Assembly: GCA_964427735.1 (NCBI GenBank)
Contig: CAYRUS010000001.1
Location: 162,173 to 226,172, forward strand
Origin: an uncultured Gammaproteobacteria bacterium
Lineage (GTDB): Bacteria > Patescibacteriota > Microgenomatia > UBA8517
Direction: 5' to 3'
DNA: 64,000 bases
Position numbers and translations under genes: made by a program. The number at the start of each line of letters is the position of its first letter. Position 1 is the first letter of the stretch. The notes beneath the pieces are model-generated. The model was not told the DNA's origin. It saw only the letters and a list, made by a program, of their open reading frames with translations, and made no database searches. Shown in pieces: positions 5,581 through 61,630 of the stretch.

Positions 5581-5581
5581 A

Positions 5582-9910: not shown

Positions 9911-9914
9911 GAAG

Positions 9915-10517: not shown

Positions 10518-10595
10518 TAAATTTATTATACTAAAATTTATCTAAGATATCAGACTTGGCTAAAAACAAGTAATTACAAAATGCAAAACAGATGT

Positions 10596-11726: not shown

Positions 11727-11735
11727 ATTTAAATT

Positions 11736-14220: not shown

Positions 14221-15898
14221 TTTCTTCTATTTTATAAATTTTACACATGTCGTGGCACGCACTTTTGACTTCTGTTAATTTAAAACTTTGTTTTAACTCA
14301 TTGAAAGACTCATGTAGATAAGATTCGTTTCCTAAACCATAAGTTGAAACATATAATTCGCGGCCATTAATTAAATATTTCTCATAAAGAACATGTAAAT
14401 CAGAATAATCCCCCGGCCCCCAAATCTTTTCTCTGTTTCTTCTGAATTCCTGATGAGGAGAAAGAGGAAGCAGATCATACTTTCCATTAGAATAAAAATC
14501 TATGTAAAAGGGAATCATAGGTGAAATAACCACAGGCTTTTTATCTGACTCTTCAATTTGATCAAAGAATTTATTGAGCTCAAGGACTGAAAGATAATAC
14601 CACGGTGTCTCGGCATATCTTAAGTTTAGTACAGCTTGATATCTTAACCTTTGTAAATTAGAAAAGAGATAAATTACGGACAAAATGCCAATTAATAAAT
14701 AAAAAACGTATTTACGCTTTTTGTCTTTTGTATATTCATAGAGAAAATGTAAAAACAATCCAAATCCTAACAAAAGTGATGGTATTTGGTGATATAAATA
14801 TCTCAAATCAACAGCATAAAAAGATGAGATAAATATGAGCTGACTTAGGAGCATAATTGTTAAAGCAACTGACAGCAATCTATATTTTTTCTTCGTAAAT
14901 CCAATTATTAATCCTATAAGTCCAGGCATTGAAACATAGATTGGTAAAACAGGAGTAAAATCCCACAAAAACCTGACATTTCCTCCAATAAATGAGTCTA
15001 AATAAATCGGAAAGTTTATTTGAAAATACTCTAATGAGAACCAGGCAGACTCACCTGAACCAGGAGACATTTCTGAATAAAAAAAGCCTGGAAATACTCC
15101 TTTAATTAAAGTTAACAATGAGTCTAAAGGATTTAATTTAATTGTAAAATTTGCATAAACAAAAGCAGGTATAGCAAAAATCAAAGTCAAAATAATAAAT
15201 CTAATGGCATTTTTAGAGTAATATTGCTTCTTTTTTGTATTTTTAAAAAGTACTTTTGTTAAATAGACAATTCCATATACAAGTGTTACTGGTAGGTAAG
15301 CATATTTGGTGGCAAAAAATGAAACAGGAACTAACGCAGAAAGAATTATATTTCGATAGTTAACATCTGATATAACAAGATAAACAGCAGATAAAAAAAG
15401 AGGTAAAATTAAATTTTCAGCCATTGCCCATTGCGGATACCAATAGAGAAAAAAATTAGTTGAGAAAAGAAAAATTGTAAGACCAACTATCCACTTATTG
15501 AAATTTAACTTTGTTAAGATTTTATAAAATACCACTAAGGAAAATATTGATAATAAAATGTTAGCAAAATAAAACATTCTGGGATCCTGATTTAAGGCTA
15601 AAAAAGGAAATAGAACAATACTGTACAACGGAGGAACTGAGGGTATAATTCCTTCTAAACCTTGTCTTGCTATTACAAATCTTCCATCTTCAAGTAAGTT
15701 TAACGGGGGTACGAGATAGTGAAAGGTATCAGGATATGGCTCCAAGTTAGGGATAAGCGTTCGGGTAGAAAATGGATTTCGCCATAGTAAAACTATAAAA
15801 GTAATTAAAGAGAGCAAAAAAAATATATTTGGTTTGGAGATTCTATCTAATTTTGTAATAAATTCTTTTAGTTTTGCAGTCACAAATAATTTTAGCAT
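14210..15898 (-). CDS. Large polytopic membrane protein, possible GT-C-like transferase (unassigned family)
   Basis: 562 aa with many TM segments and a C-terminal soluble region of about 150 aa. No canonical DE loop motif. Confidence 0.4.
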   Translation of the reverse strand: MLKLFVTAKLKEFITKLDRISKPNIFFLLSLITFIVLLWRNPFSTRTLIPNLEPYPDTFHYLVPPLNLLEDGRFVIARQGLEGIIPSVPPLYSIVLFPFLALNQDPRMFYFANILLSIFSLVVFYKILTKLNFNKWIVGLTIFLFSTNFFLYWYPQWAMAENLILPLFLSAVYLVISDVNYRNIILSALVPVSFFATKYAYLPVTLVYGIVYLTKVLFKNTKKKQYYSKNAIRFIILTLIFAIPAFVYANFTIKLNPLDSLLTLIKGVFPGFFYSEMSPGSGESAWFSLEYFQINFPIYLDSFIGGNVRFLWDFTPVLPIYVSMPGLIGLIIGFTKKKYRLLSVALTIMLLSQLIFISSFYAVDLRYLYHQIPSLLLGFGLFLHFLYEYTKDKKRKYVFYLLIGILSVIYLFSNLQRLRYQAVLNLRYAETPWYYLSVLELNKFFDQIEESDKKPVVISPMIPFYIDFYSNGKYDLLPLSPHQEFRRNREKIWGPGDYSDLHVLYEKYLINGRELYVSTYGLGNESYLHESFNELKQSFKLTEVKSACHDMCKIYKIEENDK

Positions 15899-24566: not shown

Positions 24567-25292
24567 CTATTTTATTTTTCTAAACTTATTTATTATTTTA
24601 TCCGGCGCTCCGTTATCAATAATTTTCCCATTGTCAAGAAGTAGAACTCTGTCTGTAAACTTTTTAACTCCTTCCAAATCATGACTTATAAACACTATCG
24701 AAACTCCCTGTTTTTTAAATTCTCCCATCTTATCCATACACTTTTCCTGAAATGCCTCATCACCAACTGCAAGAATTTCATCTACCAAAAGAATGTCGGG
24801 GTTTGTGTGAATTGCAATAGAGAATGCAAGCCTCATATACATTCCAGAAGAATAATGCTTTACAGGAGTATCAATAAATTCAGCTAACTCTGAAAACTCT
24901 ACAATTTCATCAAATCTACTTTCAATGTAATTCCTATTTAAACCTAAAATAACGCCGTTCAAGTATATATTTTCTCTACCTGAAAGTTCAGGATGAAAAC
25001 CCGCACCTAATTCAATCAAAGGAGCTATTCTTCCATTTGTAACAACTTTTCCTTTTGTGGGTACAGTAACACCTGCTATTAATTTTAAAATTGTTGATTT
25101 ACCTGAACCGTTTGTGCCGATTATTCCTAGTGTTTCACCTTTTTTTAATTCAAAACTAACGCCTCTTAAGGCAAAAAAATCATCTGTTTGCCCAGGCTTG
25201 AAAATATCAAGCAAAGCTTCTTTTAGGAGAAGTTTTCTTCCTTTTTTGTATCTTTTATAGACCTTATCGAATTTGACAACTGAATCTTTCAT
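24567..25292 (-). CDS. Polysaccharide ABC exporter ATP-binding protein (Wzt/TagH/KpsT-type)
   Basis: Walker A GIIGTNGSGKST, signature YSSGMYMRLAF, Walker B ILLVDEILAVGD, plus a GRENIYLNG motif typical of the glycan-export subfamily. Confidence 0.85.
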   Translation of the reverse strand: MKDSVVKFDKVYKRYKKGRKLLLKEALLDIFKPGQTDDFFALRGVSFELKKGETLGIIGTNGSGKSTILKLIAGVTVPTKGKVVTNGRIAPLIELGAGFHPELSGRENIYLNGVILGLNRNYIESRFDEIVEFSELAEFIDTPVKHYSSGMYMRLAFSIAIHTNPDILLVDEILAVGDEAFQEKCMDKMGEFKKQGVSIVFISHDLEGVKKFTDRVLLLDNGKIIDNGAPDKIINKFRKIK

Positions 25293-25295
25293 AAA

Positions 25296-26063
25296 TTAAA
25301 CAACATCAGCAAAATAAACTGATTTTTTCTTAAAGTAAATATATCCAAAAATAAATATAATCAAAGAAAATCCAGTTGCATACAAAAACGATTGAGTAGA
25401 TGGGGGAAGTCCATACAATACAGTATTTCTATAAGCATTAATAATTCCTGACATTGGGTTAAGATTAAAAATCATTCTGTATTCGCCAGGCACAAGCTCT
25501 GGCGGGTATAGTACAGGAGAGATATAAAGCCACATAGTTATAAATACTGATATTACATTTTCAACATCTCTAAAAAAAACATTTATAGCAGATAGTATAA
25601 AAGATATTCCAATGATCAAAAGAAGTTGGATAAATAAAATAATAGGAACCCAGAGAACTGTAAGGTGTATTGTTACACCAAATGCAATCAAAATTGCCAC
25701 TAAAATTAATATTGATAAAAGAAAGTCAATAAACTTTGCAAATATAGAGGCCAAAGGGAATACTTCCCTTGGAAGTCTGATTTTTGTAATTAATGTTGAG
25801 TTTGCCACAAGACTACCGGTTGCATAAGTAATAGCATTAGCAGTAAAAAGCCAAGGCACAAGCCCAACAAATAAAAATACAGGATATGGTGTTCCCCCTG
25901 TTGGAATCCTCACTAAAAATGAAAATACGACTGTTAGCACTATTAAATTGATTAATGGCACTAAAATAACCCAAGCATAACCCAAAATTGATTGTTTGTA
26001 CTTAGCTTTAATTTCCCTTTTTACGAGCTCAATTAAAAGTTCTTTATAATTTGCGGCAAACAT
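25296..26063 (-). CDS. ABC-2 type polysaccharide exporter permease (Wzm/TagG-type)
   Basis: 255 aa with 6 TM segments, N-terminal ELVKREIKAKYKQSILGYAWVIL ABC-2 signature, immediately upstream of the ATPase. Confidence 0.8.
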   Translation of the reverse strand: MFAANYKELLIELVKREIKAKYKQSILGYAWVILVPLINLIVLTVVFSFLVRIPTGGTPYPVFLFVGLVPWLFTANAITYATGSLVANSTLITKIRLPREVFPLASIFAKFIDFLLSILILVAILIAFGVTIHLTVLWVPIILFIQLLLIIGISFILSAINVFFRDVENVISVFITMWLYISPVLYPPELVPGEYRMIFNLNPMSGIINAYRNTVLYGLPPSTQSFLYATGFSLIIFIFGYIYFKKKSVYFADVV

Positions 26064-26096
26064 TACTGTTTAGATTATAAACAAATATAGCTTTAA

Positions 26097-27371
26097 TCAC
26101 ACTATTTTTCTTAATTTTGACAAAAGATACTTAACATCAAAATTAAACATCATAAAGAAAAACAAAGAAATCAATAATCCCAAATTAGTGAAGATCGAGA
26201 CATAAATAATTTCTGAAATGTTAGAATTAAATATCATAATCCCTAATGCCTGGACAATAGCCGCTGAAAACAAGATATAGGCAGATTTAGTTTTATTCCT
26301 GGATATTAAATAGCTAACTGTATAAACATTTAATGCAAAAAGTCCTGCAAAAATACTGAAGATCAACAGATAAGGAGTCGCCTCCATAAATTCTTTTCCA
26401 AAAAGTATACCCACCGAAAATTCAGGAAATAATACATAAATTGCCATTACTACTAAAACAATAAATAAGGTAAAACCAAATCCCAACAAAAATAACAAAC
26501 CAGAAGGTTTGTTGCTTGAGGCTTTTTTACTTACCATGGGAAAAACAACGCCAATAATCGGATTTGCGCCAAAATAGATCACTTTACCCATTGCTGACAA
26601 TGCCGCATAGATACTTGCCTCATGCAAACTTAAAAAATATTTAGCCAGAATAATATCTGTTGAAAACATCGAAGTTAAAGAAAGTGTCATTATAAAAATC
26701 GGTAAAGAATAAGATAAAATATCCTTTTTAAAAAATATTTCAACCTCACCTTGCTTTATACCAATATCTTTTAGAAATTTCTTACTCATAAGAATTGACA
26801 CTATTATTGAAAATATCCAAGCAACAATAATCCCAAAGAGATTGAACCCTAAATAAATAAACATTATTCCAAAAGTTATTCTACCTAACCAGCCTAAATT
26901 ATTAATAAAAACACTTTCTTTGAATTTTAATAACCCTTGTAAAAATGAACTGTTCACCATTACATAAAATGACAAAACTATAATGAACGGAATAAGCAAA
27001 GCAATTCTATGATCAAGGTTGAGAAATTGTGCAAAAAAAGGTGAGACAATCAACAAAAAGATTAATAAAAACCCACTCCAGAAAAGTGATTTTTTTATTA
27101 TCCAATTATAAAACCTTGACACTTCATCCATATCTTTGCTTGAAACAATTTTTATTATCACAAGACTAAAAAATGTAAACAAAGAAGTTATTAAAGCAAC
27201 TAAAGATATAATAGCAGCAAGCTCTCCATATCCATCTTTACCCAAAATTCTTCCAAAAATAAGATGATATAAATACCCCAAAAAGTTAGCAAAATTTGTT
27301 CCTGCGATCATCAAAGCACTGCTTGAGAGTAAAGGATTATTTAGTACATGTTTAATTTTATCCTTAGGCAT
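26097..27371 (-). CDS. Wzx-type oligosaccharide flippase (MOP superfamily polysaccharide biosynthesis protein)
   Basis: 424 aa with about 12 TM segments. N-terminal LMIAGTNFANFLGYLYHLIFGRILGKDGYGELAAIISL, typical of Wzx/MurJ-like flippases. Confidence 0.65.
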   Translation of the reverse strand: MPKDKIKHVLNNPLLSSSALMIAGTNFANFLGYLYHLIFGRILGKDGYGELAAIISLVALITSLFTFFSLVIIKIVSSKDMDEVSRFYNWIIKKSLFWSGFLLIFLLIVSPFFAQFLNLDHRIALLIPFIIVLSFYVMVNSSFLQGLLKFKESVFINNLGWLGRITFGIMFIYLGFNLFGIIVAWIFSIIVSILMSKKFLKDIGIKQGEVEIFFKKDILSYSLPIFIMTLSLTSMFSTDIILAKYFLSLHEASIYAALSAMGKVIYFGANPIIGVVFPMVSKKASSNKPSGLLFLLGFGFTLFIVLVVMAIYVLFPEFSVGILFGKEFMEATPYLLIFSIFAGLFALNVYTVSYLISRNKTKSAYILFSAAIVQALGIMIFNSNISEIIYVSIFTNLGLLISLFFFMMFNFDVKYLLSKLRKIV

Positions 27372-27376
27372 ATGTA

Positions 27377-28156
27377 TTAGTTATTTATAAATTTAACAAC
27401 TCCAACTCTTCCCATATTATGTAACTTATGTAAACCTAAAATCATAGTATTACTTGTGTGTTTTTTTACAATTTCTTCATCTTCCAATAGTGTGCTCTTG
27501 AAATCAGTTGAGGAAATATTATCTCCGCTCATTCTAAAACTAGAAAGGTAGTCATCGATTACATAGGGCATTTCTATTTTGGCTAGTTTGAGCCAAAAAT
27601 CATACTCCATAACAAATTTATCTGTGCCTGTAAACGGTCCATACTTTTCATAGGCAGTTTTGCTTAAAAATACTGAAGGCTGAATTAAATAGTTAACCAC
27701 TAAAAGTAGATTATAGTTATTGATTTTTAACAAAACATTCTTGTACTGAGTTGTTGCTTTGGCGACTTCTATTCCTTTGCCATTTATTACTTTACCTTTA
27801 CCTGCAAGCCATAATGTATTTTTCTTAAAGTTATTTCCTACTTTTCTAAAAGCTCCTACTTCGTAAACATCATCTGCATTTATAAAAGTTAAAATATCTC
27901 CAGAAGCTTTTTTCAGCCCTTTGTTGATAGCGTCTAGTTGGCCTTTATCTTTTTTTGAGAGCCATTTTAATTTACCTCTAAACTTACTTTTATAACTTTT
28001 TATAATATCTATAGTCTTATCTGTAGATCCTCCATCTTGGACTATTACTTCGTAATTATCATAATTTTGCTGAAGTATAGATTCTAAAGTAATTCCAATA
28101 AACTTATCTTTATTGTATGAGGGTATAACTACCGATACTTTTGGCTCTTTAATCAT
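27377..28156 (-). CDS. Glycosyltransferase family 2
   Basis: VSVVIPSYNKDKFI ... VIVQDGGSTDKT ... INADDV. Confidence 0.8.
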   Translation of the reverse strand: MIKEPKVSVVIPSYNKDKFIGITLESILQQNYDNYEVIVQDGGSTDKTIDIIKSYKSKFRGKLKWLSKKDKGQLDAINKGLKKASGDILTFINADDVYEVGAFRKVGNNFKKNTLWLAGKGKVINGKGIEVAKATTQYKNVLLKINNYNLLLVVNYLIQPSVFLSKTAYEKYGPFTGTDKFVMEYDFWLKLAKIEMPYVIDDYLSSFRMSGDNISSTDFKSTLLEDEEIVKKHTSNTMILGLHKLHNMGRVGVVKFINN

Positions 28157-28160: not shown

Positions 28161-28514
28161 TTACTTTTTCTTTGGAGGATTGCTTTTTTTTGTATCTTTT
28201 ATTGCTAATGTCCTAACTAGTTCTTCCAACTTTTTTTCTAGTTTTCTTGTTCTAACGTACATTACTGCAGACATGGAAATAACTATTAAAAAAGCAACCA
28301 CAACCATTAAATCAAACAGCCTAGTAATTAAAAAATTATATGATACTGTTCTAAGCAGTTCCGGAAATACAACAATAAAAGCAGTTCCGATCCAAATTAA
28401 TGCCCAAGAATAAAACTCCCTTTTGTTTATTTCTCCTTTTTTGTAATTTACTAATGAAAAATAAATCATAGATAATGAGAACACTATCCCAATAATTTGT
28501 AAACCTATTATCAT
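28161..28514 (-). CDS. Small membrane protein (DUF2304-like / GtrA-like accessory of polyprenyl-phosphate GT2)
   Basis: 117 aa with 3-4 TM segments and a basic C-terminal tail. Translationally coupled to the DPM1-like GT2 upstream (4-bp overlap). Confidence 0.5.
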   Translation of the reverse strand: MIIGLQIIGIVFSLSMIYFSLVNYKKGEINKREFYSWALIWIGTAFIVVFPELLRTVSYNFLITRLFDLMVVVAFLIVISMSAVMYVRTRKLEKKLEELVRTLAIKDTKKSNPPKKK

Positions 28515-29206
28515 ACTCTAAATCTCCAAGCTATAACATCAAATAAAACTTTAAATGCATCAAGAATCGATACTCCTTTGTACTTATCATAGTATACGGT
28601 CTTAACCGGCACTGTACAAAATTTTATCTTATACATTCCCACCTTAGCTATCATTTCTGTTTCTATCCCATACCCTGTTGAGGATAAATTTAAATTCTCA
28701 TAGCCTTTTTTAGTTAAAGCCCTATAACCACACAACAAATCATTAACTCTAATTCCAAATAGCATTTGAACTAAAAGACTACCAATTTTGTTACCCATGA
28801 ACCTAACAAAAGGGACACCTTCAGTTAAATTTCTTTCTCCGATTATAACGTCGTATTTTCTCTTTTTTAGAACATCTATAAATTTTTGCAAATCTTCAAT
28901 TTTATGCTGTCCATCAGAGTCCATAAATATAACAGCTTTCGCATTGTTTTCAAAAGCATACTCAGCACCTGTTCTCATTGCTGCTCCTTTGCCCAAATTC
29001 ACTTTGTGGTGCAACACAGTTAGCTTTTTACTTTTTAGAGCTTGTCTTGTTTTGTCTAGTGAGCCATCATCGATAATAACTACTGGATAATTGATTTTCT
29101 TTATATCTTTTAAAAAACGCCTGATAGTCTTTTCTTCGTTATAAGCAGGCACAACAATCCATATATTCATTATGATATTGTACTTTTTTTGATTAATACT
29201 TACCAA
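28511..29206 (-). CDS. Polyprenyl-phosphate sugar synthase (GT2; DPM1/GtrB/ArnC-like)
   Basis: 231 aa short GT2: WIVVPAYNEEKTI ... VVIIDDGSLDKT ... FMDSDGQH (DxD) ... catalytic-region CGYRAL. The size and motifs match dolichyl/undecaprenyl-phosphate glycosyltransferases. Confidence 0.75.
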   Translation of the reverse strand: MVSINQKKYNIIMNIWIVVPAYNEEKTIRRFLKDIKKINYPVVIIDDGSLDKTRQALKSKKLTVLHHKVNLGKGAAMRTGAEYAFENNAKAVIFMDSDGQHKIEDLQKFIDVLKKRKYDVIIGERNLTEGVPFVRFMGNKIGSLLVQMLFGIRVNDLLCGYRALTKKGYENLNLSSTGYGIETEMIAKVGMYKIKFCTVPVKTVYYDKYKGVSILDAFKVLFDVIAWRFRV

Positions 29207-30208
29207 TCAGGAGCGATTTTGGATGTACCAGTGGATAGTTTTAGCAAGACCCTCATCAAAGCTAGTTGAAGAAATAAAGCCAAATTTTTCAGCAGCCTTC
29301 GAGGTATCTAATTTACGTCGAGGCTGTCCATCTGGTTTAGAAGTATCCCAAGCAATTCTACCTGTAAAACCAACTAGATTTTTTATTTTTCCTGCTAACT
29401 CACGAATTGAAATTTCACAACTACTGCCAACATTAATAGGATCAGAATCATCATAAAATTGTGCAGCCAAAAGTATTGCTTCAGCAGCATCTTCAACATA
29501 CAAAAACTCTCTTGTTGCACTTCCGGTTCCCCAAACTACGACTTCATCTTTTCTTGACTCCTTCGCATCGACAAATTTTTTAATAAGAGCTGGTATTACA
29601 TGGGAAGACTCAGGATCAAAATTATCACCAGGACCATAAAGATTAACTGGAAGCAGATATATACTTTCCAATCCATATTGATTTCTATAAGCATCTCCCA
29701 AAACAAGAAGCATTTTTTTTGCAAGACCGTATGGTGCATTCGTTTCTTCTGGATACCCCATCCATAAATCTTCCTCTTTAAAAGGAACTGGAGTGTTTTT
29801 GGGATACGCGCACACTGTCCCTGTTATTACAACTTTCTTTACTTTAGCCTCATTTGCCACCTGCAAAACGTTCATACCCATAATCATATTATCCTTAAAA
29901 AGCTCTACAGGATAATTCATGTTATAACCAATTCCGCCTACGTTTGCGGCTAGATGCACTACAATATCTCCACTTATTACTTTTCTTGCACTTTCTAAAT
30001 CTCCTAAATCATATTCTTTCGAAGAAAAAGTAACGATCTCCTTTGGGCTATATTCTCTTAGTTTTGCTACTAAATGACTACCTAAAAACCCAGTACCGCC
30101 AGTAATTACAACTCTTTTTCCTTCCCAAAATTCCATTCTTTCCATGCTTCTTGGTAGATATTTTGCTTCTATTCCTGGAAGTTTTTTTCTGCCTTCTTCT
30201 GTACCCAT
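29207..30208 (-). CDS. fcl: GDP-L-fucose synthase family (GDP-4-keto-6-deoxy-D-mannose 3,5-epimerase/4-reductase, Fcl/WcaG-like)
   Basis: Collinear with the E. coli Fcl sequence as I recall it: GTVCAYPK (Fcl GSSCIYPK), ETNAPYGLAKK (PTNEPYAIAKI), NLYGPGDNFDPESSHVIPALIKKF, VVVWGTGSATREFLYVEDAA, INVGSSCEISIRELA, DTSKPDGQPRRKLD. The true start is probably an internal Met (MERMEFWEGKRVVITGG); the ORF carries a 21-aa N-terminal extension. Confidence 0.8.
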   Translation of the reverse strand: MGTEEGRKKLPGIEAKYLPRSMERMEFWEGKRVVITGGTGFLGSHLVAKLREYSPKEIVTFSSKEYDLGDLESARKVISGDIVVHLAANVGGIGYNMNYPVELFKDNMIMGMNVLQVANEAKVKKVVITGTVCAYPKNTPVPFKEEDLWMGYPEETNAPYGLAKKMLLVLGDAYRNQYGLESIYLLPVNLYGPGDNFDPESSHVIPALIKKFVDAKESRKDEVVVWGTGSATREFLYVEDAAEAILLAAQFYDDSDPINVGSSCEISIRELAGKIKNLVGFTGRIAWDTSKPDGQPRRKLDTSKAAEKFGFISSTSFDEGLAKTIHWYIQNRS

Positions 30209-30253: not shown

Positions 30254-31435
30254 CTATGCAATCCAATATCCTCTTATAAAAAGAGACAGATAAATAAATT
30301 GAAGTATGACACAAACAATAGACAATAATTTAAGTTGTGTCTTGGATAATGAAGATACAATTAATGGAAATATTGGAAACAAAACAAGAGAATATCTTGG
30401 CATTGATGAAAATGTTCCAGTAAGTGTGGGCACAAGTAAAGCAATAAAAATAAAAACTAAATAACTAAGACGGATATTCTTGTACAACAAAAATATCAAT
30501 ACAAAAGGTATAGTACCAAAGATAAACTCAGATAAAATATTAAAAAAATGCAAGCTTTTTAAATCAACTGAAAAAAGCATCTTAAAATATCTATAAATTA
30601 CTTGAGGATAAGGAACCAGAGGAATTGCACTTCTCTCAGCACCAAAGCCTGGTTGAGCTGAAAGAAAATACAGAGGGTCACCGTGCGCTTCATTCAAATA
30701 AAGCATATATATAAAAAGTCCTAAGGGAGCGATTAGAAAGCTTAAGAAAACAATTGCTTCATTTTTAACATCATTCTTTTTCTTTTGCAAATAAAACTCT
30801 ATTATTAATGCAAAAATAAGAAGGATACCTATTATTTTTGTCGCAGATGCAAGGCTTGCAAAAACACCTGAAACTAAAAATTTTCCTTTTCGAGCAAAAT
30901 ATAAACTTCCAGCTGCCAAGAATAAAAACAACGATTCCGTATAAATCGCCCCAAAATAAAAAGAAACAGGAAAAGCCAATAACAAAATCACTGAAAGAAA
31001 TGACGTGTTTTTATTGTTGTCTATTTTATAAAGTTTATAAACAAAAATTAATCCAGCCAAAAAAATTAAATTTGAAAGTAATAAGCCTGAATAAAAATAA
31101 GCAGGATCAACAAATATATCAGTATCTAAAGACAAATTTTTGGGAATAAATTTTGAAAATAACCTTATTAAAAAAGGAAAAAGAGGGAAAAAAGCTTCTG
31201 TATATTCTGAGTTATAACCGTTTTGTGCAATCCGTAGATAATGGACACCATCAAAATTACCAAAACCCCAAACCCAATTAGGTAAGCCTGTAATTTCTAA
31301 CGCAGTATCAGCATATGGAAATCTATTCCCAAAGACTGGAATAAAATAGATTGCAAACATCGCAACTACAAAAAGTACTATTCTCCAAGAAACAAAATAA
31401 AAAAATATTTGTCTAATCTCTAAGTAATTTTTCAT
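30254..31435 (-). CDS. GT-C membrane mannosyltransferase-like protein (PIG-V / GT76-like family)
   Basis: 393 aa polytopic. The motif NFDGVHYLRIAQNGYNSEYTEAFFPLFP matches the D-x-x-H/W-Y-L-x-I-A-x-x-G-Y ... AFFPL signature I associate with PIG-V-type mannosyltransferases. Confidence 0.45.
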   Translation of the reverse strand: MKNYLEIRQIFFYFVSWRIVLFVVAMFAIYFIPVFGNRFPYADTALEITGLPNWVWGFGNFDGVHYLRIAQNGYNSEYTEAFFPLFPFLIRLFSKFIPKNLSLDTDIFVDPAYFYSGLLLSNLIFLAGLIFVYKLYKIDNNKNTSFLSVILLLAFPVSFYFGAIYTESLFLFLAAGSLYFARKGKFLVSGVFASLASATKIIGILLIFALIIEFYLQKKKNDVKNEAIVFLSFLIAPLGLFIYMLYLNEAHGDPLYFLSAQPGFGAERSAIPLVPYPQVIYRYFKMLFSVDLKSLHFFNILSEFIFGTIPFVLIFLLYKNIRLSYLVFIFIALLVPTLTGTFSSMPRYSLVLFPIFPLIVSSLSKTQLKLLSIVCVILQFIYLSLFIRGYWIA

Positions 31436-32540
31436 AAACTTTTATAGTCTCGTTGGCTGTTTTATTCCAAGAATACTCTTTTGATTTAAGAACACCTTTC
31501 TCCACAAGATCTTCTTGTAATTTTTTATCTTTTACAACTTTGCTAATTTTATTTGCAAAATCGCTGATTTTTTTAGGATCAGCGTATATTGCAGCGTTAC
31601 CTGCTACTTCTCTATGCACTTTTATATCTGAAGCGACAACAGGAGTGCTGCATGCCATAGCCTCTAATAGAGGAAGTCCAAATCCTTCGCTATAAGAAGG
31701 CTGACAGTATACTGAAGCTAAATTATAAATAGCTACTAACTCCTCATCTCTCACATATCCAGTCAAAACTACATTCTCATCTAAAATAAGCCTTTTTAGA
31801 TCGGCTATGTGCACAAGTTCGGGATGAGGTTTATCAAACATAAACCTTACGTAATCCATCGGACCTTGAATACTATATTTAAATACAGGACTTTCTGCTA
31901 CATCCTTTGCATGTTTACCCACAATAACAAGAGGTAAACTTACTTTCTTTGATGCCTCAATTAAAGTACTCAAATTTTTGTTGTAATTTACATCACCAAC
32001 ATAAAGAACAAATTTATCTGGTAAAGAAAATTTCTTTTTGACAGCATTTAGCTTTTTCTTGTCTTCAACCTTTTTAAAACTACTATTGGCTGCTAAATAT
32101 GTGACGAATATTTTATCTTTAGGAAATTTCAAATGTTTTACGATATCATTTTTAGAAGCTTCCGAAATTGTTATGGCAGCGTCAACTTTTTTAAGCCGGG
32201 ATATGTTTTTGATTAAATTTATTTTTCCTTTAATTCCCGCAGGATAATTTAAAGGATAATTAAGTGGTATTAGGTCATCAATTGTTATTATTGTTTTTGA
32301 TTTAAATTTTTTGTTTGGAAGACTTAAAAAATATGGGTGAAACTGTGTAAAGTGCAAAATTTCATATCCTTCTAGCTTGTTTTTGTTAAAATCAATTGAT
32401 TTAATATCAAAATTTTTATTCTTATTTTTTAGGTGATCTGTTAATTCTTTTACCTGTACGCCAATACCTCTTATGCTATGACCACTAGCAAGCGCGGATA
32501 TATCAATTGCTACTTTTAATTTTTTATTACTACTTGGCAT
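31413..32540 (-). CDS. Glycosyltransferase family 4
   Basis: YSEGFGLPLLEAMACSTPVVASDIKVHREV. Confidence 0.8.
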   Translation of the reverse strand: MPSSNKKLKVAIDISALASGHSIRGIGVQVKELTDHLKNKNKNFDIKSIDFNKNKLEGYEILHFTQFHPYFLSLPNKKFKSKTIITIDDLIPLNYPLNYPAGIKGKINLIKNISRLKKVDAAITISEASKNDIVKHLKFPKDKIFVTYLAANSSFKKVEDKKKLNAVKKKFSLPDKFVLYVGDVNYNKNLSTLIEASKKVSLPLVIVGKHAKDVAESPVFKYSIQGPMDYVRFMFDKPHPELVHIADLKRLILDENVVLTGYVRDEELVAIYNLASVYCQPSYSEGFGLPLLEAMACSTPVVASDIKVHREVAGNAAIYADPKKISDFANKISKVVKDKKLQEDLVEKGVLKSKEYSWNKTANETIKVYEKLLRD

Positions 32541-33407
32541 TTAATTACGTATATATCTCATATAAGCACGAGGAAACCTAATCGCAGAAAAAAAGGAAAA
32601 AACTATTCCTTGATATCCATCTAATATTCCCTTGTGTCTTATCTGAGTCATAAAAAACCATCGAAGCGGCTTTATTATCATATATTTAATAAATGTAGAT
32701 AAATCTTTTTTTGTTTTATTGTCTTTTAACTCCTTAACCATCAATTTGATGTACCTGTCGTTTCTCATAATATACCTTTTAAAAGTTGGGTCCGCCATAT
32801 GAATAAGAGGATTTTGCAGCCAGCCTACTCTCCCATCCACAACAATTTGCTCGTGTACATCCTTTGCTGGAAAATAAGCCTTCCCATTTTTAATCAGACG
32901 TATAACCCCATCCGGATAAACACCACCATACCTTAAATATTTTCCCAGAAAATAATTTAATCTAGGGACAAAAAATCCTGCGTATTCTCCTACATTTTTG
33001 CCAATTTTTCCATCACGTTCTTCTATTAGTTTTGTGTGTCTATCAAACAGCTTTTTTTCTCTTAAAGATTTTTGATATTTTCCAATATCTTTATCTTCCA
33101 TTTGAATAATTTTTATTATTTCTTCAGATAATTCTTTACTGACAATTTCATCTGCATCAAGTTGGAGAATCCACTTATTTTTTGCTTTTTCCAAAGCTTT
33201 TTGCTTATTGATATGGAAAATTTGTTCATTTCTTACTTTATACACTTTTGCACCTTTTTTCTTGGCAATTTCCCTTGTTTTATCTTCAGATGAACCATCA
33301 ACTATAATAATTTCATCAGCAATATCTTTAACTGAATTCAGACATTTACCTATATTTTCTTCTTCGTTAAATGTTGCTAATACAACTGATAGTTTGTTTT
33401 TATTCAT
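32541..33407 (-). CDS. Glycosyltransferase family 2 (same subfamily as 16039..17022, 51483..52244 and 53222..54121)
   Basis: LSVVLATFNEEENI ... IIIVDGSSEDKT ... LQLDADEIV; C-terminal GKYLRYGGVYPDGVIRLIKNG segment. Confidence 0.8.
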   Translation of the reverse strand: MNKNKLSVVLATFNEEENIGKCLNSVKDIADEIIIVDGSSEDKTREIAKKKGAKVYKVRNEQIFHINKQKALEKAKNKWILQLDADEIVSKELSEEIIKIIQMEDKDIGKYQKSLREKKLFDRHTKLIEERDGKIGKNVGEYAGFFVPRLNYFLGKYLRYGGVYPDGVIRLIKNGKAYFPAKDVHEQIVVDGRVGWLQNPLIHMADPTFKRYIMRNDRYIKLMVKELKDNKTKKDLSTFIKYMIIKPLRWFFMTQIRHKGILDGYQGIVFSFFSAIRFPRAYMRYIRN

Positions 33408-33408
33408 T

Positions 33409-35007
33409 TTAATAAGTACTTACTATATAAAATGCTTCACCAATTTGACCTGGAAATTCAATTGGTTTTTGTGTTTTGAAAAAATCTTTGTACCTTAAAC
33501 CACTATACTGGCTTGGCGTCACAATATAAAGCTGACCATCTATAGGTGGACTTTCGATTGGATCCCAATTCCCAAAATTATATTTATCAAATGATTCTAT
33601 AGTATTATAACTTTTACTTTGGTTTTGATCGTATTTTAGAGAAGACAAAAGTTCTGGCAATGGGTACTGAAGGTAATACAGGAAGAAAATATAAGGTTGA
33701 CTACGTTCTTTTGTCATGTACACCTTGTGATAGTCTGGATTATCTTCCACGAATTGGACAATCTGTTTCATTCCGTATTGCCAATCATGAGGGTTCATAC
33801 GAGGATAATTTATTAGGTAATATGAATATGTATAAAGTGACTGAAATATAAAACAAGCTAAAATCACAAATAATGAAGCTGCCTCAATTTTTTTGTTTTT
33901 TGCTAACCTACTAAATCCCGCCACACCAACTGACGCCAATAATTGAGGAGGGCCGATCATAAATATAGACCTGGTTGAGTTTGCAATGTTGGTAGAAATT
34001 GCTCCTGGGAATGGAGCTATCAAAAGCCAAAAGAGCAATAAAATTAATTCCTTAAACTTCCTTTGGGAAAATAAAACAAAAATTCCAATAAAAGAGAATA
34101 TAACTACAACAACACTAAATTGTCCTTTGTCACCTATAAACCCTCTTGGATTTTGGTCACCACGAAATACAAGATAATCTAATGAGAAATATTCCTTGTA
34201 GTTTTTTAAAGATAATTCTAACTGCCCTAGATATTCATTACCAGTATTTTGGAATAGTATTGTTTCATTAATTAAATCGCTCGAGAACTTAGTTTGATTT
34301 GCTCTAGCAAGACCTAGCAATCGAGGCTCTATCACCAACAAGAAAATGAAAAACAAAAAAACTCCTACAGAAATAAATGACAACTTTTTTAATTGAAAAA
34401 GTTCTTTTGTATATAAAAGTACAAGTAATGGTACAAACAAAAACACAACAATTTTTGCAGAATGGTATGAAAGCAAGCTCACCCCAAAAAATCCAAAAGC
34501 AAGTGGTAAAAGATAGTTTTTCCTTTCTAATCCATGAAAAAACAGAGCAAACCCCGCTATGAAGAAAAAAAGCGCAAAGTTAGCTTCCCATAAACCTCTA
34601 GAATAGTGAATATGATAAACACTCAAAGCAAGGAAAATAGCAGATAAAAATGCCACTAACCTATTATTAAATAATTTATTTGCTAGTAGATAAATAAATA
34701 AAATAGTCAAACTTCCAAAAATAGCTGAAGGTAACCTCGTTGTAAAATCGTTTACTCCTAAAAATAAATAGAAAATAGAAGTTATATAAATGTGTACAGG
34801 ATGTTTATCATCCCTAAATGATGTAAAAACTAGTGGTAAAGTATCTCCCCATTCGTCTTTACCCCAATTTTTGATAGTAAAAGCGTTATAAGCTGCGGCT
34901 GCTTCATCCCAATTGAGAGAAGGAGGAACTGAAGTTATTTTAAATACTCTTAATATCCCTGCAATTATTACTATAGCTATTAAAATATATAAATATTTTT
35001 TATTCAT
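33409..35007 (-). CDS. GT-C membrane glycosyltransferase, PMT/ArnT-like (tandem paralog 1 of 4)
   Basis: 532 aa polytopic; N-terminal loop PPSLNWDEAAAAYNAFTIKNWGKDEWGDTLPLVFTSFRDDKHP. Confidence 0.7.
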   Translation of the reverse strand: MNKKYLYILIAIVIIAGILRVFKITSVPPSLNWDEAAAAYNAFTIKNWGKDEWGDTLPLVFTSFRDDKHPVHIYITSIFYLFLGVNDFTTRLPSAIFGSLTILFIYLLANKLFNNRLVAFLSAIFLALSVYHIHYSRGLWEANFALFFFIAGFALFFHGLERKNYLLPLAFGFFGVSLLSYHSAKIVVFLFVPLLVLLYTKELFQLKKLSFISVGVFLFFIFLLVIEPRLLGLARANQTKFSSDLINETILFQNTGNEYLGQLELSLKNYKEYFSLDYLVFRGDQNPRGFIGDKGQFSVVVVIFSFIGIFVLFSQRKFKELILLLFWLLIAPFPGAISTNIANSTRSIFMIGPPQLLASVGVAGFSRLAKNKKIEAASLFVILACFIFQSLYTYSYYLINYPRMNPHDWQYGMKQIVQFVEDNPDYHKVYMTKERSQPYIFFLYYLQYPLPELLSSLKYDQNQSKSYNTIESFDKYNFGNWDPIESPPIDGQLYIVTPSQYSGLRYKDFFKTQKPIEFPGQIGEAFYIVSTY

Positions 35008-36517
35008 TCTTATAAATTATAAAAGCTTCTTCACCTTTTAAATCACTTATAGTTTTTACCTGTTTATAATCTATATTAATATCTGGGGGAATTATTAGTA
35101 AAGAATTTTCTTCTAATTCAACATTTTCATTTGAGATAAATTTATACTTTCCGAATGATTCAACAGTAGAAACTCCCCATTTATCCGGTGGATTATAATT
35201 AACTTCATTCCAAAAAGATTCCGGGTCATATTTATTATAAAAAAGAGTAAATATATATGGTTGACCGTACGTATCCGCTACATGGACTTCATTAAATTCT
35301 TCGAAATTAATACTTTCAGAAAAAACTTGCTTGTAAGGGTATTGCCAATCTAAAGAAGTGGTTTTATTGTAATCAGTTAAAAACTTCTGAAAATACACTA
35401 AAAATGACAAAAACAAAGTAAATATAAGCACAAAATGAATGTATTTCGGATAGTTTTTCTTAACTAATAATGCTCCTGCACCTATAGCAGATATAATAGA
35501 AAAAGAAGGAGCCATTAAAATAGCTCTTAAGGCATGCGGAGATTCTCTTGTGATAGCAGCAGGAATGGGTGCAACTAATAGTAAGGCAAATGGAAGAAAA
35601 TATCTCCCTTTTTTCTTGAAAGTAGTATAAATCCCCACCACAACCAAAACTGATTCCATTAAATAAAGTTGTCCAAATCCGGGAATTTGACTTCTAGGGT
35701 TTGAGTCTCCATCCACAAACAAAAACGTTGGGTTAAAATGTGACATATAATTATTACCAAAATAAAAAATTTTATCTTTAAAAGTATCACCTTCAAGACC
35801 AATCGCTTGTAATCTACTTCCACCATAGTCTTGAAAATAAAGTTTTGTAATAGGCAATAAACTAATAACAAAAACTAAAAATGAAATAATTAAATACTTG
35901 TTTTTTATGATATTTGCTTTCTCTTTAATCAATTGAAGTGCAAATATAAACAAAATACTAATAGGGACAATAACTCTAAAACTATTGTAGTTATATATAC
36001 TTGCTATCCAACTTAGTACTACTAGCAAAAAATATTTAGAATTTCCCCAACTACTTAAAGAGAAAAATATACCTAATAGATAAAAAGCCAAACCTGCGGT
36101 TGCTTCATACCCAGTTCTTGAAAATATAAAGGTCCAAGGAGAGATAATGGATAAAAACAATGCATATAACCCAATAGTATTACTATTAGTTAGTTTTTTG
36201 GTGATTAAATATACTAAAATTACAGCAACAAAAGAATAAATCACAGAGGGCAGTCTTACTGAAAATTCATTTAAACCAAATAATGCAATAAAAGGAACAG
36301 CAGAATATATATACAAAGGAAGCTTAAACTCTCCAAATGCTCTAAAATGAAGAGGAAGAAACTCTCCCCATTCATCACTCCCTGTCTTTAATACTGAATA
36401 TGCGTTATATCCGATAGATGCTTCATCCCAATAAACAGAAGATGGTATTTGATTGATTTTATACAAACGAGTAAACAAAAAAAGTAAAACAATAAACCAA
36501 AGGAAATACCTCTTCAC
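35000..36517 (-). CDS. GT-C membrane glycosyltransferase, PMT/ArnT-like (tandem paralog 2 of 4)
   Basis: 505 aa; SSVYWDEASIGYNAYSVLKTGSDEWGEFLPLHFRAFGEFKLP. Confidence 0.7.
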   Translation of the reverse strand: MKRYFLWFIVLLFLFTRLYKINQIPSSVYWDEASIGYNAYSVLKTGSDEWGEFLPLHFRAFGEFKLPLYIYSAVPFIALFGLNEFSVRLPSVIYSFVAVILVYLITKKLTNSNTIGLYALFLSIISPWTFIFSRTGYEATAGLAFYLLGIFFSLSSWGNSKYFLLVVLSWIASIYNYNSFRVIVPISILFIFALQLIKEKANIIKNKYLIISFLVFVISLLPITKLYFQDYGGSRLQAIGLEGDTFKDKIFYFGNNYMSHFNPTFLFVDGDSNPRSQIPGFGQLYLMESVLVVVGIYTTFKKKGRYFLPFALLLVAPIPAAITRESPHALRAILMAPSFSIISAIGAGALLVKKNYPKYIHFVLIFTLFLSFLVYFQKFLTDYNKTTSLDWQYPYKQVFSESINFEEFNEVHVADTYGQPYIFTLFYNKYDPESFWNEVNYNPPDKWGVSTVESFGKYKFISNENVELEENSLLIIPPDINIDYKQVKTISDLKGEEAFIIYKNE

Positions 36518-38163
36518 TTTACCTCCACTATTTCAAATACCGGTTTCCCATCAAGGAAATAAAAAGTCTCAACTATATTAGCATCTGTTGGAAAATCTCC
36601 AGGCTTACCTACAACTAATATATCTTCATTTGGGTATTTGTTAATGATATCTTGATACTTTGTGCCTTCATCTCCTAAGTCAGGAAATAAAAATTTACCA
36701 AAGCTTTCTACCCAAACCCAATCATGAGATTGATACCTCTTTAAATTCGGATCTGTTTGGAAAGAATCTGGTGGATATTGTAAATAAAACAATGCAAAAA
36801 TATGAGGTTCTCCATAATGTCTCGTAACTACAATTCGATCATAATCTGTAATCCTAGGTTCTATAAAATCATAAACCTGCTTATATCCATATTGCCATTC
36901 TCTTGAGTATGCAAAAGGATAAATAAAATAATAATTAAATAAATACAAACTAAATTGAAACATAAAAACAAAAATTACTAGTGACCATACCGAAAACTGG
37001 TATACTCTTTTTTTGTCTTTGAGATACTTATATGCCTTGTATAATCCATAGGCAGAAATAAGTTGAAAAACAGGCAATGCTATTAAAGTTCTTAAAGCAT
37101 GGGGAATTGTATCGCGGGTCGTCGCTGCAGGTATAATTGAAATTACCAACCAAATTATCAAAATCCATCTATACTTAGATTTATCTTTAAACAATAGGTA
37201 AGCTCCAATAACTAAAAACGGTGCTTGTATCCAGAATAACTCACCTATTCCTTGAACATGGTGATGCTTGTGTTCTGCACCCCTTAAAAATAAAAATTGA
37301 GGACTGAAGTGAGATAGATAATTCTTTGCAAAATAATATGATATATATACTGGTCTGTTGTGGATTAAATTGGTGATTAAACCTGAAAGTTCGGACTCAT
37401 TTCTTCTCTCTTCAATTCTTGGCACGAGACCTGGGTCAGTGGTAATACTAACTAATTCATATCTAGCAGAACCCTCCCCACTTAAAACAAAAGGCACTAA
37501 AGGTAGCAATAATATTAAAAATAATCCACCTGCGAGTAAAAAATAATTTTTAAATTTGAGTATTTCCTTTTGATATACTGCTGCAGTTATCAAAAGAAAA
37601 ATTGGCACAAAAAATCTTGCACTATTGTAGGTATAAACTGCAATCGCAAAAGGAACTGCACTTACTATCCACCACCTCTTATCAGTATTGAAACCACGAA
37701 CAAGAAACCAAACCCCCAACAGTACCCAAAATAAAGAAAAAGAAGATTCAAAAGACGCGCGAGTCAACTGAATATGCCAAACTGAAGTCGCCATTAAAAA
37801 GGCAGTGAAAACCCCTATTTTTTTATTTGAAAATATTTCTTTAGCTACAAAATACGATAATAAAACAGTCAAGGTTCCATAAACAACTGGTGTTATCCTT
37901 ACCCCAAATGCATTAAGACCAAAAAATGCAATCCCCGGAATTGAAGCGTATATTTGAGCTGGAAGCTTATATTCTCCGAAAGATCTAAAATGTAAAGGTA
38001 AAAAACTATTCCACTCGTCTTTACCTGTTTTTAGAATAGAATAAGCGTTATAGCCAATAGACACTTCATCCCAATTGAGTGATGGAGGAATTTCAGTCAC
38101 CTTATTAATTCTTAATAAAAATCCAAGTAAAGCAACTAAAACAATTATCAAAAAGTTTCTCAT
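36514..38163 (-). CDS. GT-C membrane glycosyltransferase, PMT/ArnT-like (tandem paralog 3 of 4)
   Basis: 549 aa; PPSLNWDEVSIGYNAYSILKTGKDEWNSFLPLHFRSFGEYKLP. Confidence 0.7.
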   Translation of the reverse strand: MRNFLIIVLVALLGFLLRINKVTEIPPSLNWDEVSIGYNAYSILKTGKDEWNSFLPLHFRSFGEYKLPAQIYASIPGIAFFGLNAFGVRITPVVYGTLTVLLSYFVAKEIFSNKKIGVFTAFLMATSVWHIQLTRASFESSFSLFWVLLGVWFLVRGFNTDKRWWIVSAVPFAIAVYTYNSARFFVPIFLLITAAVYQKEILKFKNYFLLAGGLFLILLLPLVPFVLSGEGSARYELVSITTDPGLVPRIEERRNESELSGLITNLIHNRPVYISYYFAKNYLSHFSPQFLFLRGAEHKHHHVQGIGELFWIQAPFLVIGAYLLFKDKSKYRWILIIWLVISIIPAATTRDTIPHALRTLIALPVFQLISAYGLYKAYKYLKDKKRVYQFSVWSLVIFVFMFQFSLYLFNYYFIYPFAYSREWQYGYKQVYDFIEPRITDYDRIVVTRHYGEPHIFALFYLQYPPDSFQTDPNLKRYQSHDWVWVESFGKFLFPDLGDEGTKYQDIINKYPNEDILVVGKPGDFPTDANIVETFYFLDGKPVFEIVEVK

Positions 38164-38180
38164 AAAATCCTCAAAAAAAA

Positions 38181-47034: not shown

Positions 47035-47040
47035 AAAATA

Positions 47041-49550: not shown

Positions 49551-49553
49551 ATT

Positions 49554-51469: not shown

Positions 51470-51482
51470 AGACTTAATTTAG

Positions 51483-53163: not shown

Positions 53164-53221
53164 GATATAAAGTGTAAAGGTTACAAATTAAAATTTAATA
53201 ATAAGTAGATCATAATTGTAG

Positions 53222-61607: not shown

Positions 61608-61630
61608 AATGATTTAATCCTATTTCCAAT

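Follow-up and report, generated by a model that had tools for sequence, protein, structure and literature searches.

A probable seam between two glycan-assembly modules in a 64-kb locus of a Microgenomates bacterium

The focal segment

The DNA considered here is a stretch of 64,000 nucleotides (nt), called the window below, from contig CAYRUS010000001.1 of assembly GCA_964427735.1 (positions 162,173 to 226,172, forward strand), which is recorded as an uncultured Gammaproteobacteria bacterium and placed by GTDB in the Microgenomatia (UBA8517) of the Patescibacteriota. The window makes up ~8% of its 759,860-bp contig, has a G+C content of ~31%, and is almost entirely devoted to glycan assembly. 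Within it, a 2.8-kb segment (positions 24,567 to 27,371) encodes an ATP-binding cassette (ABC) exporter of the Wzm/Wzt type followed by a Wzx-type flippase, here termed Wzx1. The best explanation of this focal segment is that it is the seam joining two glycan-assembly modules of a bacterium of the Candidate Phyla Radiation (CPR; Microgenomates). Most CPR bacteria, or Patescibacteria, have not been cultured; they are ultrasmall and presumed to live in attachment to other cells.

The window holds 56 long open reading frames (ORFs), of which 53 lie on the minus strand, mostly spaced by a few bases or overlapping. A Pfam scan of these ORFs and an edge fragment (3-170) identifies glycan-assembly proteins in nearly all of them. 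The window proteins are singletons within a collection of 15 billion proteins. The focal ORFs lie exactly where a first reading of the sequence (the original prediction) had placed them, all on the minus strand. Glycosyltransferases of families 2 and 4 are abbreviated GT2 and GT4, and polytopic membrane glycosyltransferases of the C fold GT-C. The focal genes and those next to them are as follows.

24567..25292, minus strand: Wzt, ABC ATPase of a polysaccharide/teichoic-acid-type exporter, without carbohydrate-binding domain (241 aa; Pfam ABC_tran, 79.8 bits)
25296..26063, minus strand: Wzm, ABC-2 permease (ABC2_membrane, PF01061, 60.4 bits)
26097..27371, minus strand: Wzx1, flippase of the polysaccharide transporter (PST) family within the multidrug/oligosaccharidyl-lipid/polysaccharide (MOP) group (Polysacc_synt, PF01943, 49.4 bits; Polysacc_synt_3, PF13440, 39.4 bits; both above curated cut-offs)
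27377..28156, minus strand: soluble generic GT2 of 259 aa that travels with the following pair
28161..28514, minus strand: small DUF2304 membrane protein of the GacJ/Rv3632 family, 117 aa, not an enzyme (PF10066, 70.4 bits)
28511..29206, minus strand: PpgS/GacI/dolichol-P-mannose-synthase-like GT2, candidate polyprenyl-phosphate sugar synthase (NCBIfam PpgS 128.6 bits, AglJ 105.9 bits)
29207..30208, minus strand: GDP-L-fucose-synthase-like short-chain dehydrogenase/reductase (SDR) of the nucleotide-sugar 3,5-epimerase/4-reductase type (NCBIfam Fcl, 293.8 bits)
30254-31435, minus strand: PIG-V-like GT-C (Pfam)
31413-32540, minus strand: GT4 of the GT-C module (Pfam)
32541-33407, minus strand: GT2 of the GT-C module (Pfam)
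33409-39809, minus strand: four tandem paralogous PMT_2 GT-C genes (Pfam, paralogy)

The Wzm/Wzt exporter proposed earlier at 24567..26063 is borne out by Pfam, NCBIfam and PDB matches and by its motifs. Wzt aligns over the whole nucleotide-binding domain with that of Aquifex aeolicus Wzt (6amx/6m96/7k2t; 248 bits, E 6e-73), with further PDB matches to TarH/TagH (TarH 211 bits) and to M. tuberculosis RfbE, and among NCBIfam families it scores best against TagH and galactan Wzt. Walker A (GTNGSGKS, residues 59-66), signature (YSSGM, 147-151) and Walker B (ILLVDE, 167-172) motifs are present. Its 241 residues cover residues 10-235 of the 404-aa Aquifex protein and then stop; Wzt thus terminates after the nucleotide-binding domain and has no C-terminal carbohydrate-binding domain, as had been suspected. 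Wzm, whose gene is separated from that of Wzt by 3 nt, has six hydrophobic peaks and scores 102 bits against Aquifex Wzm. Both subunits match chains of the M. tuberculosis exporter (9qfx), and galactan Wzt/Wzm models are found for them in NCBIfam.

The Wzx-type assignment of Wzx1 and of a second protein at 56306..57790 (Wzx2) also holds, with Polysacc_synt/Polysacc_synt_3 matches above curated cut-offs and 11-12 and 13-14 hydrophobic peaks, respectively. The original prediction would have been undermined if the second protein were a transporter of MATE or MurJ type; neither the MurJ nor the MatE family is listed for either protein (Pfam E <=0.01; NCBIfam E <=0.001). No PDB entry was matched by sequence when Wzx1, Wzx2 or the Wzy_C protein described below was the query. 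Recent duplication as the origin of the two Wzx proteins was considered and is excluded, because they have no detectable mutual similarity (blastp E 0.53; phmmer).

Next to Wzx1, the DUF2304 gene and the gene of the PpgS-like GT2 overlap by 4 nt. This GT2 is predicted to have no transmembrane segment of its own, and its PDB matches are Pyrococcus dolichol-P-mannose synthase (5mlz; 54.7 bits, residues 9-228), GtrB and ArnC. Its score against PpgS, the polyprenyl-phospho-GalNAc synthase of mycobacteria, lies below the equivalog cut-off of 370, which makes it a relative rather than an orthologue. In known systems, GacJ (DUF2304) forms a complex with GacI and stimulates it, and Rv3632 of M. tuberculosis stimulates PpgS (10.1101/180810). 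Three polyprenyl-phosphate monosaccharide synthases had been proposed for the window, and two of them find support: the PpgS/AglJ-like protein at 28511-29206 and a GT2 at 61631-62389 with about equal matches (58-63 bits) to dolichol-P-mannose synthase (DPM), GtrB and ArnC. The third, at 27377-28156, appears to be an ordinary GT2, closest to chondroitin synthase, TuaG and generic GT2 proteins (NCBIfam, PDB).

The SDR gene (29207-30208) travels with the ABC genes, at 57-62% identity in two related loci (L038 and L049). It was considered as a UDP-N-acetylhexosamine (UDP-HexNAc) 4-epimerase feeding a PpgS-like N-acetylgalactosamine synthase, and this was rejected on the ground that it matches the GDP-L-fucose synthase family best. 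ManC is encoded at 211-1299, but the window showed no GDP-mannose 4,6-dehydratase.

Separate conservation of the two modules

A scan of GTDB genomes with the single Wzx1 protein found no relatives. They were found with a 6-sequence alignment as seed; a 15-sequence alignment was too divergent. Wzx1 homologues are 27-43% identical and occur only in CPR, namely in Woesebacteria, Daviesbacteria, Blackburnbacteria, Shapirobacteria, the 'Microgenomates group', and metagenome-assembled genomes (MAGs) generically labelled 'uncultured Gammaproteobacteria'. This distribution assigns the window to a Patescibacterium of Microgenomates type. When window proteins are placed by tblastn on 35 loci that hold a Wzx1 homologue, a common block emerges that comprises 3-4 PMT_2 GT-C, the GT2 (32541), the GT4 (31413), the PIG-V-like GT-C, Wzx1, and an ArnC/PgfS/PpgS-like GT2 (264-277 aa in five examples). 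The PIG-V-like GT-C lies directly upstream of Wzx1 in 28 of the 35 loci and an ArnC/DPM1-like GT2 directly downstream in 31, and the GT-C module (30254..39809) is colinear in ~30 genomes. Wzm/Wzt is present in 1/35 (L006), which like the window has both exporters at the same seam.

Thirteen of the loci (L005-L009, L012, L013, L015, L016, L021, L030, L032 and L033) come from GTDB representative MAGs titled 'uncultured Gammaproteobacteria bacterium' that carry the Microgenomates-type GT-C/Wzx1 block. Block identity in these MAGs is the same as in named Daviesbacteria and Woesebacteria, and the titles look like a generic mislabel.

The ABC exporter has a different set of companions, which in the window continue from Wzt towards lower coordinates.

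23270-24565: GT2, 431 aa (Pfam)
21720-23267: GT4, 515 aa (Pfam)
20601-21692: GT4 (Pfam)
19868-20608, minus strand, and 17070-17780, plus strand: methyltransferases of the ABC module (Pfam)
17811-19850, plus strand: probable GT-C (hhalign, NCBIfam)
16039-17022, minus strand: cytoplasmic GT2 of the ABC module (Pfam)

Close Wzm relatives (53-70% identity) occur in loci with the same companions. In L038 and L080 the order is Wzm, Wzt, a methyltransferase or GT2, GT2 (431 aa), GT4 (515 aa), PpgS-like GT2, DUF2304 and GT2 (259 aa), so that homologues of the 16039, 23270 and 21720 genes come after Wzt and the pairing of PpgS-like GT2 with DUF2304 is kept in both; the GDP-fucose-synthase-like gene comes next in L038. 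Wzm/Wzt relatives adjoin the same GT-C block in five loci (L037, L038, L039, L080 and L006). Judged from these gene orders, Wzx1 belongs phyletically to the GT-C module and the GacI/GacJ-like pair to the ABC module. The comparison of gene neighbourhoods in related genomes that had been proposed as a check thus places the exporters in separately conserved modules, and the window as a whole reads as a mosaic of such modules, all of whose parts are members of known families.

Relatives of the ABC module vary in several respects. The slot between the PIG-V-like GT-C and Wzm is filled by different genes among them. In L080 (7925-9950), a nucleotidyltransferase and a TagF-like glycerophosphotransferase (192 bits) precede Wzm, which is a hint of teichoic-acid-type cargo for this exporter lineage. 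In L038 (9590-9958), the gene before Wzm encodes a 122-aa weakly EamA-like protein (24 bits, below cut-off) that could be a small ArnE/F-like flippase. Despite the lack of a cap-reading domain in Wzt, methyltransferases recur in the module, in L080 at 11489-12388 and 16991-17710 (directly after Wzt) and in L006 at 15600-16502 (further downstream). They may O-methylate sugars or end chains in some way that is not sensed by Wzt.

GT-C arrays and the second flippase

GT-C enzymes are the dominant feature of the locus and were overlooked in the original prediction. The window encodes 15 firm and two probable ones, the latter at 14210-15898 (hhalign) and 17811-19850 (hhalign, NCBIfam). Ten are PMT_2/PTPS_related proteins, including tandem arrays of four (33409-39809) and three (43704-48756), whose paralogues score 100-340 bits against one another. 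GT-C fold membrane glycosyltransferases consume polyprenyl-phosphate sugars outside the membrane. Searches of the available literature collection returned nothing specific on GT-C arrays or oligosaccharyltransferases (OSTs) in CPR/Patescibacteria. The genes beyond the first array include the Wzx2 module.

39876..41873, plus strand: paralogue of the OST-like GT-C at 54619-56385 (phmmer, 231 bits)
42512-43732, minus strand: GT87-like GT-C (Pfam)
43704-48756, minus strand: three tandem paralogous GT-C genes (Pfam, paralogy)
48735..54121, minus strand: five GT2 and one GT4, cytoplasmic assembly line of the Wzx2 module (Pfam; 49-63% identity, colinear in L117 and L118)
54619..56346, minus strand: GT-C fold enzyme of 575 aa with an OST/AftA-like fold, directly after Wzx2 (ORF to 56385, probable start 56346)
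56306..57790, minus strand: Wzx2, PST/MOP flippase (Polysacc_synt_3, PF13440, 198 bits)
60021-61607, minus strand: PMT_2 GT-C (Pfam)
61631-62389, minus strand: dolichol-P-mannose-synthase/GtrB/ArnC-like GT2
62426-63964, minus strand: further GT-C (97.7% probability against a profile of the window PMT_2 proteins)

The best named families of Wzx2 in NCBIfam are the MOP flippase PRK10459 (WzxC-type; 159 bits), an O-glycosylation flippase and TuaB. The GT-C that follows it and its paralogue (54619-56385 and 39876-41873) have zero Pfam or NCBIfam matches. Homologues of this protein number more than 1000 in the collection searched; the best 120 are ~48% identical, and the few with organism names are from Patescibacteria or Microgenomates. 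The family has ~10 hydrophobic segments and invariant motifs including WGxxGHDxxWH and NYHxGFD. An AlphaFold model (pLDDT 89.3, pTM 0.90) matches STT3 best in Foldseek (6s7o; E 1.4e-8, TM 0.53), followed by AglB and PglB; DPY19 and AftA (TM 0.54) are also found. The WWDxG motif is present in 0/33 aligned family members, for which reason 54619-56346 is not filed as an oligosaccharyltransferase.

The gene of this GT-C lies in every case directly after a Wzx2-type flippase. On three other Patescibacteria contigs the order is Wzx2-type flippase, OST-like GT-C, GT2, GT2, GT2, GT4. Reading of the DNA by tblastn in L117 and L118 gives identities of 63-71% for Wzx2, 46-48% for the OST-like GT-C, and 54-63% for the GT2/GT2/GT2/GT4 run; the last two GT2 of the module also occur in L117 (49-54% identity). 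In two of these three contigs and in the window, genes for a DPM1-like GT2 and a PMT_2 GT-C are found a short way upstream of the module.

Module A and the Wzy_C protein

The lower-coordinate end of the window holds a further conserved set of genes.

3..170, minus strand: Bac_transf, the N-terminal 56 aa of a small monotopic phosphoglycosyltransferase that runs off the window (PF02397, 37.4 bits, profile positions 1-49)
211..15898, minus strand: Module A, with ManC, five GT4, two GT2, a hexapeptide acyltransferase, two PMT_2 GT-C, a probable GT-C (14210-15898) and a conserved 186-aa protein around the Wzy_C gene (Pfam, hhalign)
7041..8492, minus strand: Wzy_C/O-antigen-ligase-like polytopic protein with a WaaL-like fold (Wzy_C, PF04932, 46.8 bits)

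The edge fragment confirms that an initiating phosphoglycosyltransferase begins at the window edge, and the Wzy_C score together with a WaaL-like model agrees with the O-antigen ligase or Wzy-like protein expected at 7041..8492. Module A runs in the order hexapeptide acyltransferase, 186-aa protein, GT2, Wzy_C, PMT_2, GT4, GT2, GT4, GT4, ManC and Bac_transf, and then DUF4012. It is colinear in L119 and L120, including the 186-aa protein, ManC (L120), a Bac_transf of 209-212 aa and the DUF4012 gene after it. The Wzy_C protein is predicted to have ~10 membrane helices.

Possible assembly routes

Exporters that belong to separate conserved modules imply that lipid-linked glycans are handled in no fewer than two streams, probably in three or more. 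This supports the original prediction that at least two distinct lipid-linked glycans are made here. Its alternative, that one polymer is exported while another is used for decoration, is also supported, and is compatible with the former. Decoration is favoured for the focal segment because a GT2, DUF2304, Wzx, ABC exporter and GT-C together form the published architecture of the Streptococcus pyogenes group A carbohydrate. The scheme favoured here, to which we give about an even chance of being right, is a two-stage assembly of group A carbohydrate-like or mycobacterial-like type, in which an ABC-exported polymer is combined with Wzx1-flipped polyprenyl-phosphate sugars used by GT-C enzymes, with an independent Wzx2 route alongside. 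Substrates, acceptors and the direction of coupling in this scheme are read from sequence and synteny, whereas family identities, folds, gene order and module conservation are direct results.

A polymer would be made on a polyprenyl-diphosphate primer by the cytoplasmic GT2 and GT4 enzymes (23270-24565, 21720-23267, 20601-21692 and 16039-17022), and the whole polymer would be exported by Wzm/Wzt lacking a carbohydrate-binding domain. At the cytoplasmic face, the PpgS/GacI-like soluble GT2, which its DUF2304 partner would keep at the membrane, would make a polyprenyl-monophosphate sugar, and a second polyprenyl-phosphate donor could come from the ArnC/DPM1-like GT2 at 61631-62389. Wzx1, in the role proposed for GacK, would carry these lipid-linked sugars across to the outer face, where the 15-17 GT-C enzymes could use them to branch or extend exported glycans. 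Independently, Wzx2 would flip the oligosaccharide of the adjacent five GT2 and one GT4, on which the neighbouring OST/AftA-like GT-C would act next. The locus would then handle at least three classes of lipid-linked glycan. A GT-A fold enzyme, a separate membrane protein, a Wzx-type flippase and a GT-C make up a recognised type of system (PMC8035078). The window brings together a GT-A enzyme (GT2 at 28511 or 61631), Wzx1, and GT-C enzymes (30254-39809 and 60021-63964), and the adjacency of GT2, Wzx1 and GT-C is conserved in ~30 genomes.

Several observations weigh against this scheme. Wzx1 has no NCBIfam or PDB match and is too dissimilar to named flippase families for its substrate to be read from them, and the GT2 (32541) and GT4 (31413) near it would be just as consistent with an oligosaccharide cargo. 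In about 30 genomes Wzx1 occurs with no ABC exporter adjacent. Conversely, no Wzx1 homologue is detectable in the available stretches of L037, L038 and L080 that carry the ABC module, so Wzx1 is not obligatory for the GacI/GacJ-like pair, which is present in L038 and L080. The adjacent SDR is GDP-fucose-synthase-like rather than a UDP-HexNAc epimerase, and no WecA/TagO-type priming enzyme for the ABC pathway lies within the window.

The main alternative is that Wzx1 instead serves a pathway like that of ALG glycans or lipomannan. Wzx1 would then flip an oligosaccharide-lipid or glycolipid begun by the GT2 (32541-33407) and GT4 (31413-32540), the PIG-V-like and PMT_2 GT-C enzymes would elongate it outside with sugars from the ArnC/DPM1-like GT2, the Wzm/Wzt polymer would be separate, and the product of the GacI/GacJ-like pair would cross by another route. 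The GT2, GT4, PIG-V-like GT-C, Wzx1 and DPM1-like GT2 form a single colinear block in the ~30 genomes without a nearby ABC exporter, and L037 and L038 have Wzm/Wzt, and no Wzx1 homologue, at the position following this block, as if the exporters were interchangeable. In other systems, lipid-anchored mannans are substrates of the PIG-V (GT76) and GT87 families (Pfam names; PMC3485146 for polyprenyl-phosphate-mannose-dependent GT-C). However, neither an initiating enzyme nor a lipid acceptor can be recognised in the block, a monosaccharide-lipid cargo would explain the close association of Wzx1 with a polyprenyl-phosphate-synthase-like GT2 equally well, and the window order GT2-DUF2304-GT2-Wzx1 copies gacI-gacJ-gacK. 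This pathway is a tentative alternative that we consider possible though somewhat unlikely. A classical Wzx/Wzy pathway beside the ABC pathway, in which the edge phosphoglycosyltransferase primes, GT4 and GT2 enzymes complete a unit, Wzx1 or Wzx2 flips it and the Wzy_C protein polymerises it, is quite unlikely. A phosphoglycosyltransferase, a Wzy_C protein and Wzx-family proteins are present, the first two together in conserved Module A, but the evidence on Wzy_C leans elsewhere. Module A contains no Wzx gene, in L119 and L120 the 8 kb on either side of the Wzy_C gene are free of Wzx (Polysacc_synt) genes, and a Wzy_C homologue is detected in 0/35 Wzx1 loci. The Wzy_C protein has more than 3700 homologues, the best 120 of which are ~50% identical, and serotype-specific Wzy polymerases are not known to be conserved at such a level. 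Foldseek comparison of its AlphaFold model (pLDDT 80.9) gives the WaaL ligase 7tpg as the only strong match (E 2.8e-5), then FtsW/RodA, and no Wzy structure is among the matches. In L048 and L049, a four-gene block with Wzy_C adjoins Wzm/Wzt, as expected of a ligase acting on an ABC-exported chain. Conservation, the WaaL match and this adjacency together lean, though not decisively, towards a ligase-type protein rather than a variable Wzy polymerase. The check for Wzz or other chain-length regulators proposed with the original prediction also counts against the classical pathway: in the 56 long ORFs and the fragment at the edge, the Pfam scan detects no Wzz/polysaccharide co-polymerase domain. 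There is thus no support for an O-antigen pairing of the classical Wzx/Wzy kind. It is very improbable that one or both Wzx-like proteins are lipid II flippases (MurJ/SpoVB-type) or other unrelated MOP transporters with an incidental location. Some Gram-positive lipid II flippases do fall in the Polysacc_synt family, and Wzx2 is unusually conserved (63-71% identity); against this stand the lack of MurJ or MATE matches in Pfam and NCBIfam for either protein, the position of both within conserved colinear blocks made solely of glycosyltransferases, and the named families of Wzx2 given above.

A broader proposal concerns the Wzx2 module. It may represent an undescribed core surface-glycosylation pathway shared across Patescibacteria, in which an oligosaccharide from five GT2 and one GT4 would be flipped by a conserved Wzx and transferred en bloc by the GT-C family with an STT3/PglB-like fold; in Microgenomates, GT-C arrays fed via a lineage-specific Wzx or ABC exporter would add to it. 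We regard this as doubtful. If true, such a pathway would be a bacterial counterpart of ALG/OST logic and would probably build the host-attachment surface.

Comparison with known systems

In S. pyogenes, polyrhamnose made in the cytoplasm is exported by the GacD/E ABC transporter, GacI and GacJ make GlcNAc-P-undecaprenol, Wzx-type GacK is proposed to flip this lipid, and the GT-C GacL adds the side chain outside (10.1101/180810; PMC8035078). The window shares with this cluster an ABC-2 permease and ATPase (GacD/E), a soluble GT2 (GacI), DUF2304 (GacJ), Wzx (GacK), GT-C (GacL), and polymerising GT2/GT4 enzymes, as well as the local order GT2-DUF2304-(GT2)-Wzx beside the ABC genes. It differs in lacking rhamnose (rml) genes, in having a GDP-fucose-synthase-like SDR next to the pair and an extra GT2 between the DUF2304 gene and Wzx1, in its 15-17 GT-C genes compared to one in the streptococcal cluster, and in a Wzx1 that is tied phyletically to the GT-C array rather than to the ABC genes. 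In addition, the host is a CPR bacterium, and the window has no LytR-CpsA-Psr (LCP) ligase. CflA was considered as a further Wzx-type analogy and dropped because a review gives it as GtrA-type (PMC8035078).

Mycobacterial arabinogalactan and lipoarabinomannan assembly relies on Wzm-Wzt, on PpgS-Rv3632 together with a GT-C, and on numerous GT-C enzymes supplied with polyprenyl-phosphate sugars (PMC13649706, PMC3485146). The likeness to this assembly (Wzm-Wzt Rv3783/Rv3781; PpgS-Rv3632-Rv3779; Emb/Aft/Mpt GT-C; Ppm1) lies in a cytoplasmic polymer exported by Wzm/Wzt and then elaborated outside by GT-C enzymes, in the PpgS-like GT2 with its DUF2304 partner, in a GT87-family member, and in the 9qfx matches. 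However, NCBIfam scores in the window are far below equivalog cut-offs, Glf, GlfT2, DprE and UbiA-type genes are absent from it, and no Wzx-type flippases are assigned to the mycobacterial pathways. The Aquifex aeolicus O-antigen exporter (6oih, 6m96, 7k2t, 8dku) is the best sequence match of both subunits over their full length, including YSSGM, but its 404-aa Wzt carries a cap-reading C-terminal carbohydrate-binding domain that the 241-aa window protein lacks.

The Wzx2 module resembles lipid-linked oligosaccharide/OST pathways (Campylobacter pgl, archaeal agl, eukaryotic ALG-OST) in its GT2/GT4 run, its MOP flippase, and an adjoining GT-C with STT3/AglB/PglB matches; more GT-C enzymes and DPM1-like GT2 genes lie nearby, as for luminal ALG steps. 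It differs from them in the absence of WWDxG from all 33 aligned family members, in TM-scores of ~0.5 with AftA fitting about as well, and in the lack of Pfam/NCBIfam membership. With the Wzx/Wzy O-antigen and capsule pathways of E. coli and other bacteria the window has in common a phosphoglycosyltransferase, PST flippases and a Wzy_C-family protein, but it lacks a chain-length regulator, the flippases of its relatives are never beside a Wzy_C gene, and its Wzy_C protein is highly conserved and WaaL-like.

The components of the locus all come from known families, and precedents for the architecture are in the literature; the lineage is unstudied. Streptococci, enterococci, lactococci and mycobacteria already offer understood cases of adjacent ABC and Wzx machinery, and the value of finding it here is modest. 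The results worth following are that the GacI/GacJ-type pair goes with the ABC exporter and the neighbouring Wzx with the GT-C array, and that a conserved unannotated OST/AftA-like GT-C family lies beside the second Wzx. The latter, together with the density of GT-C arrays in so small a genome, is the more novel residue. Modules that recur colinearly across Microgenomates/Patescibacteria provide concrete candidate genes for envelope glycans that probably mediate attachment and phage recognition.

Minor features of the window

Intergenic spacing is <=45 nt throughout the interval from 39809 down to 19868, which fits co-transcription. A scan for promoters and terminators between 19000 and 38900 found fewer promoter-like sites than in shuffled sequences, and the terminator-like sites are all intragenic. 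Two small P-loop kinases (AAA_18/shikimate-kinase-like) and a NUDIX hydrolase (54125-54622, 58907-59410 and 58133-58561) are interspersed among the glycosyltransferase genes of the Wzx2 area. Small ORFs at 9350-9910 (186 aa), 41875-42546 (223 aa) and 59422-59829 (135 aa) have no significant family match, with only a sub-threshold FANCL_d1 match (E 0.0018) for the 223-aa ORF. Two membrane segments each are predicted in the 186-aa and 223-aa proteins, and the position of the 186-aa ORF is kept in L119, L120 and L049.

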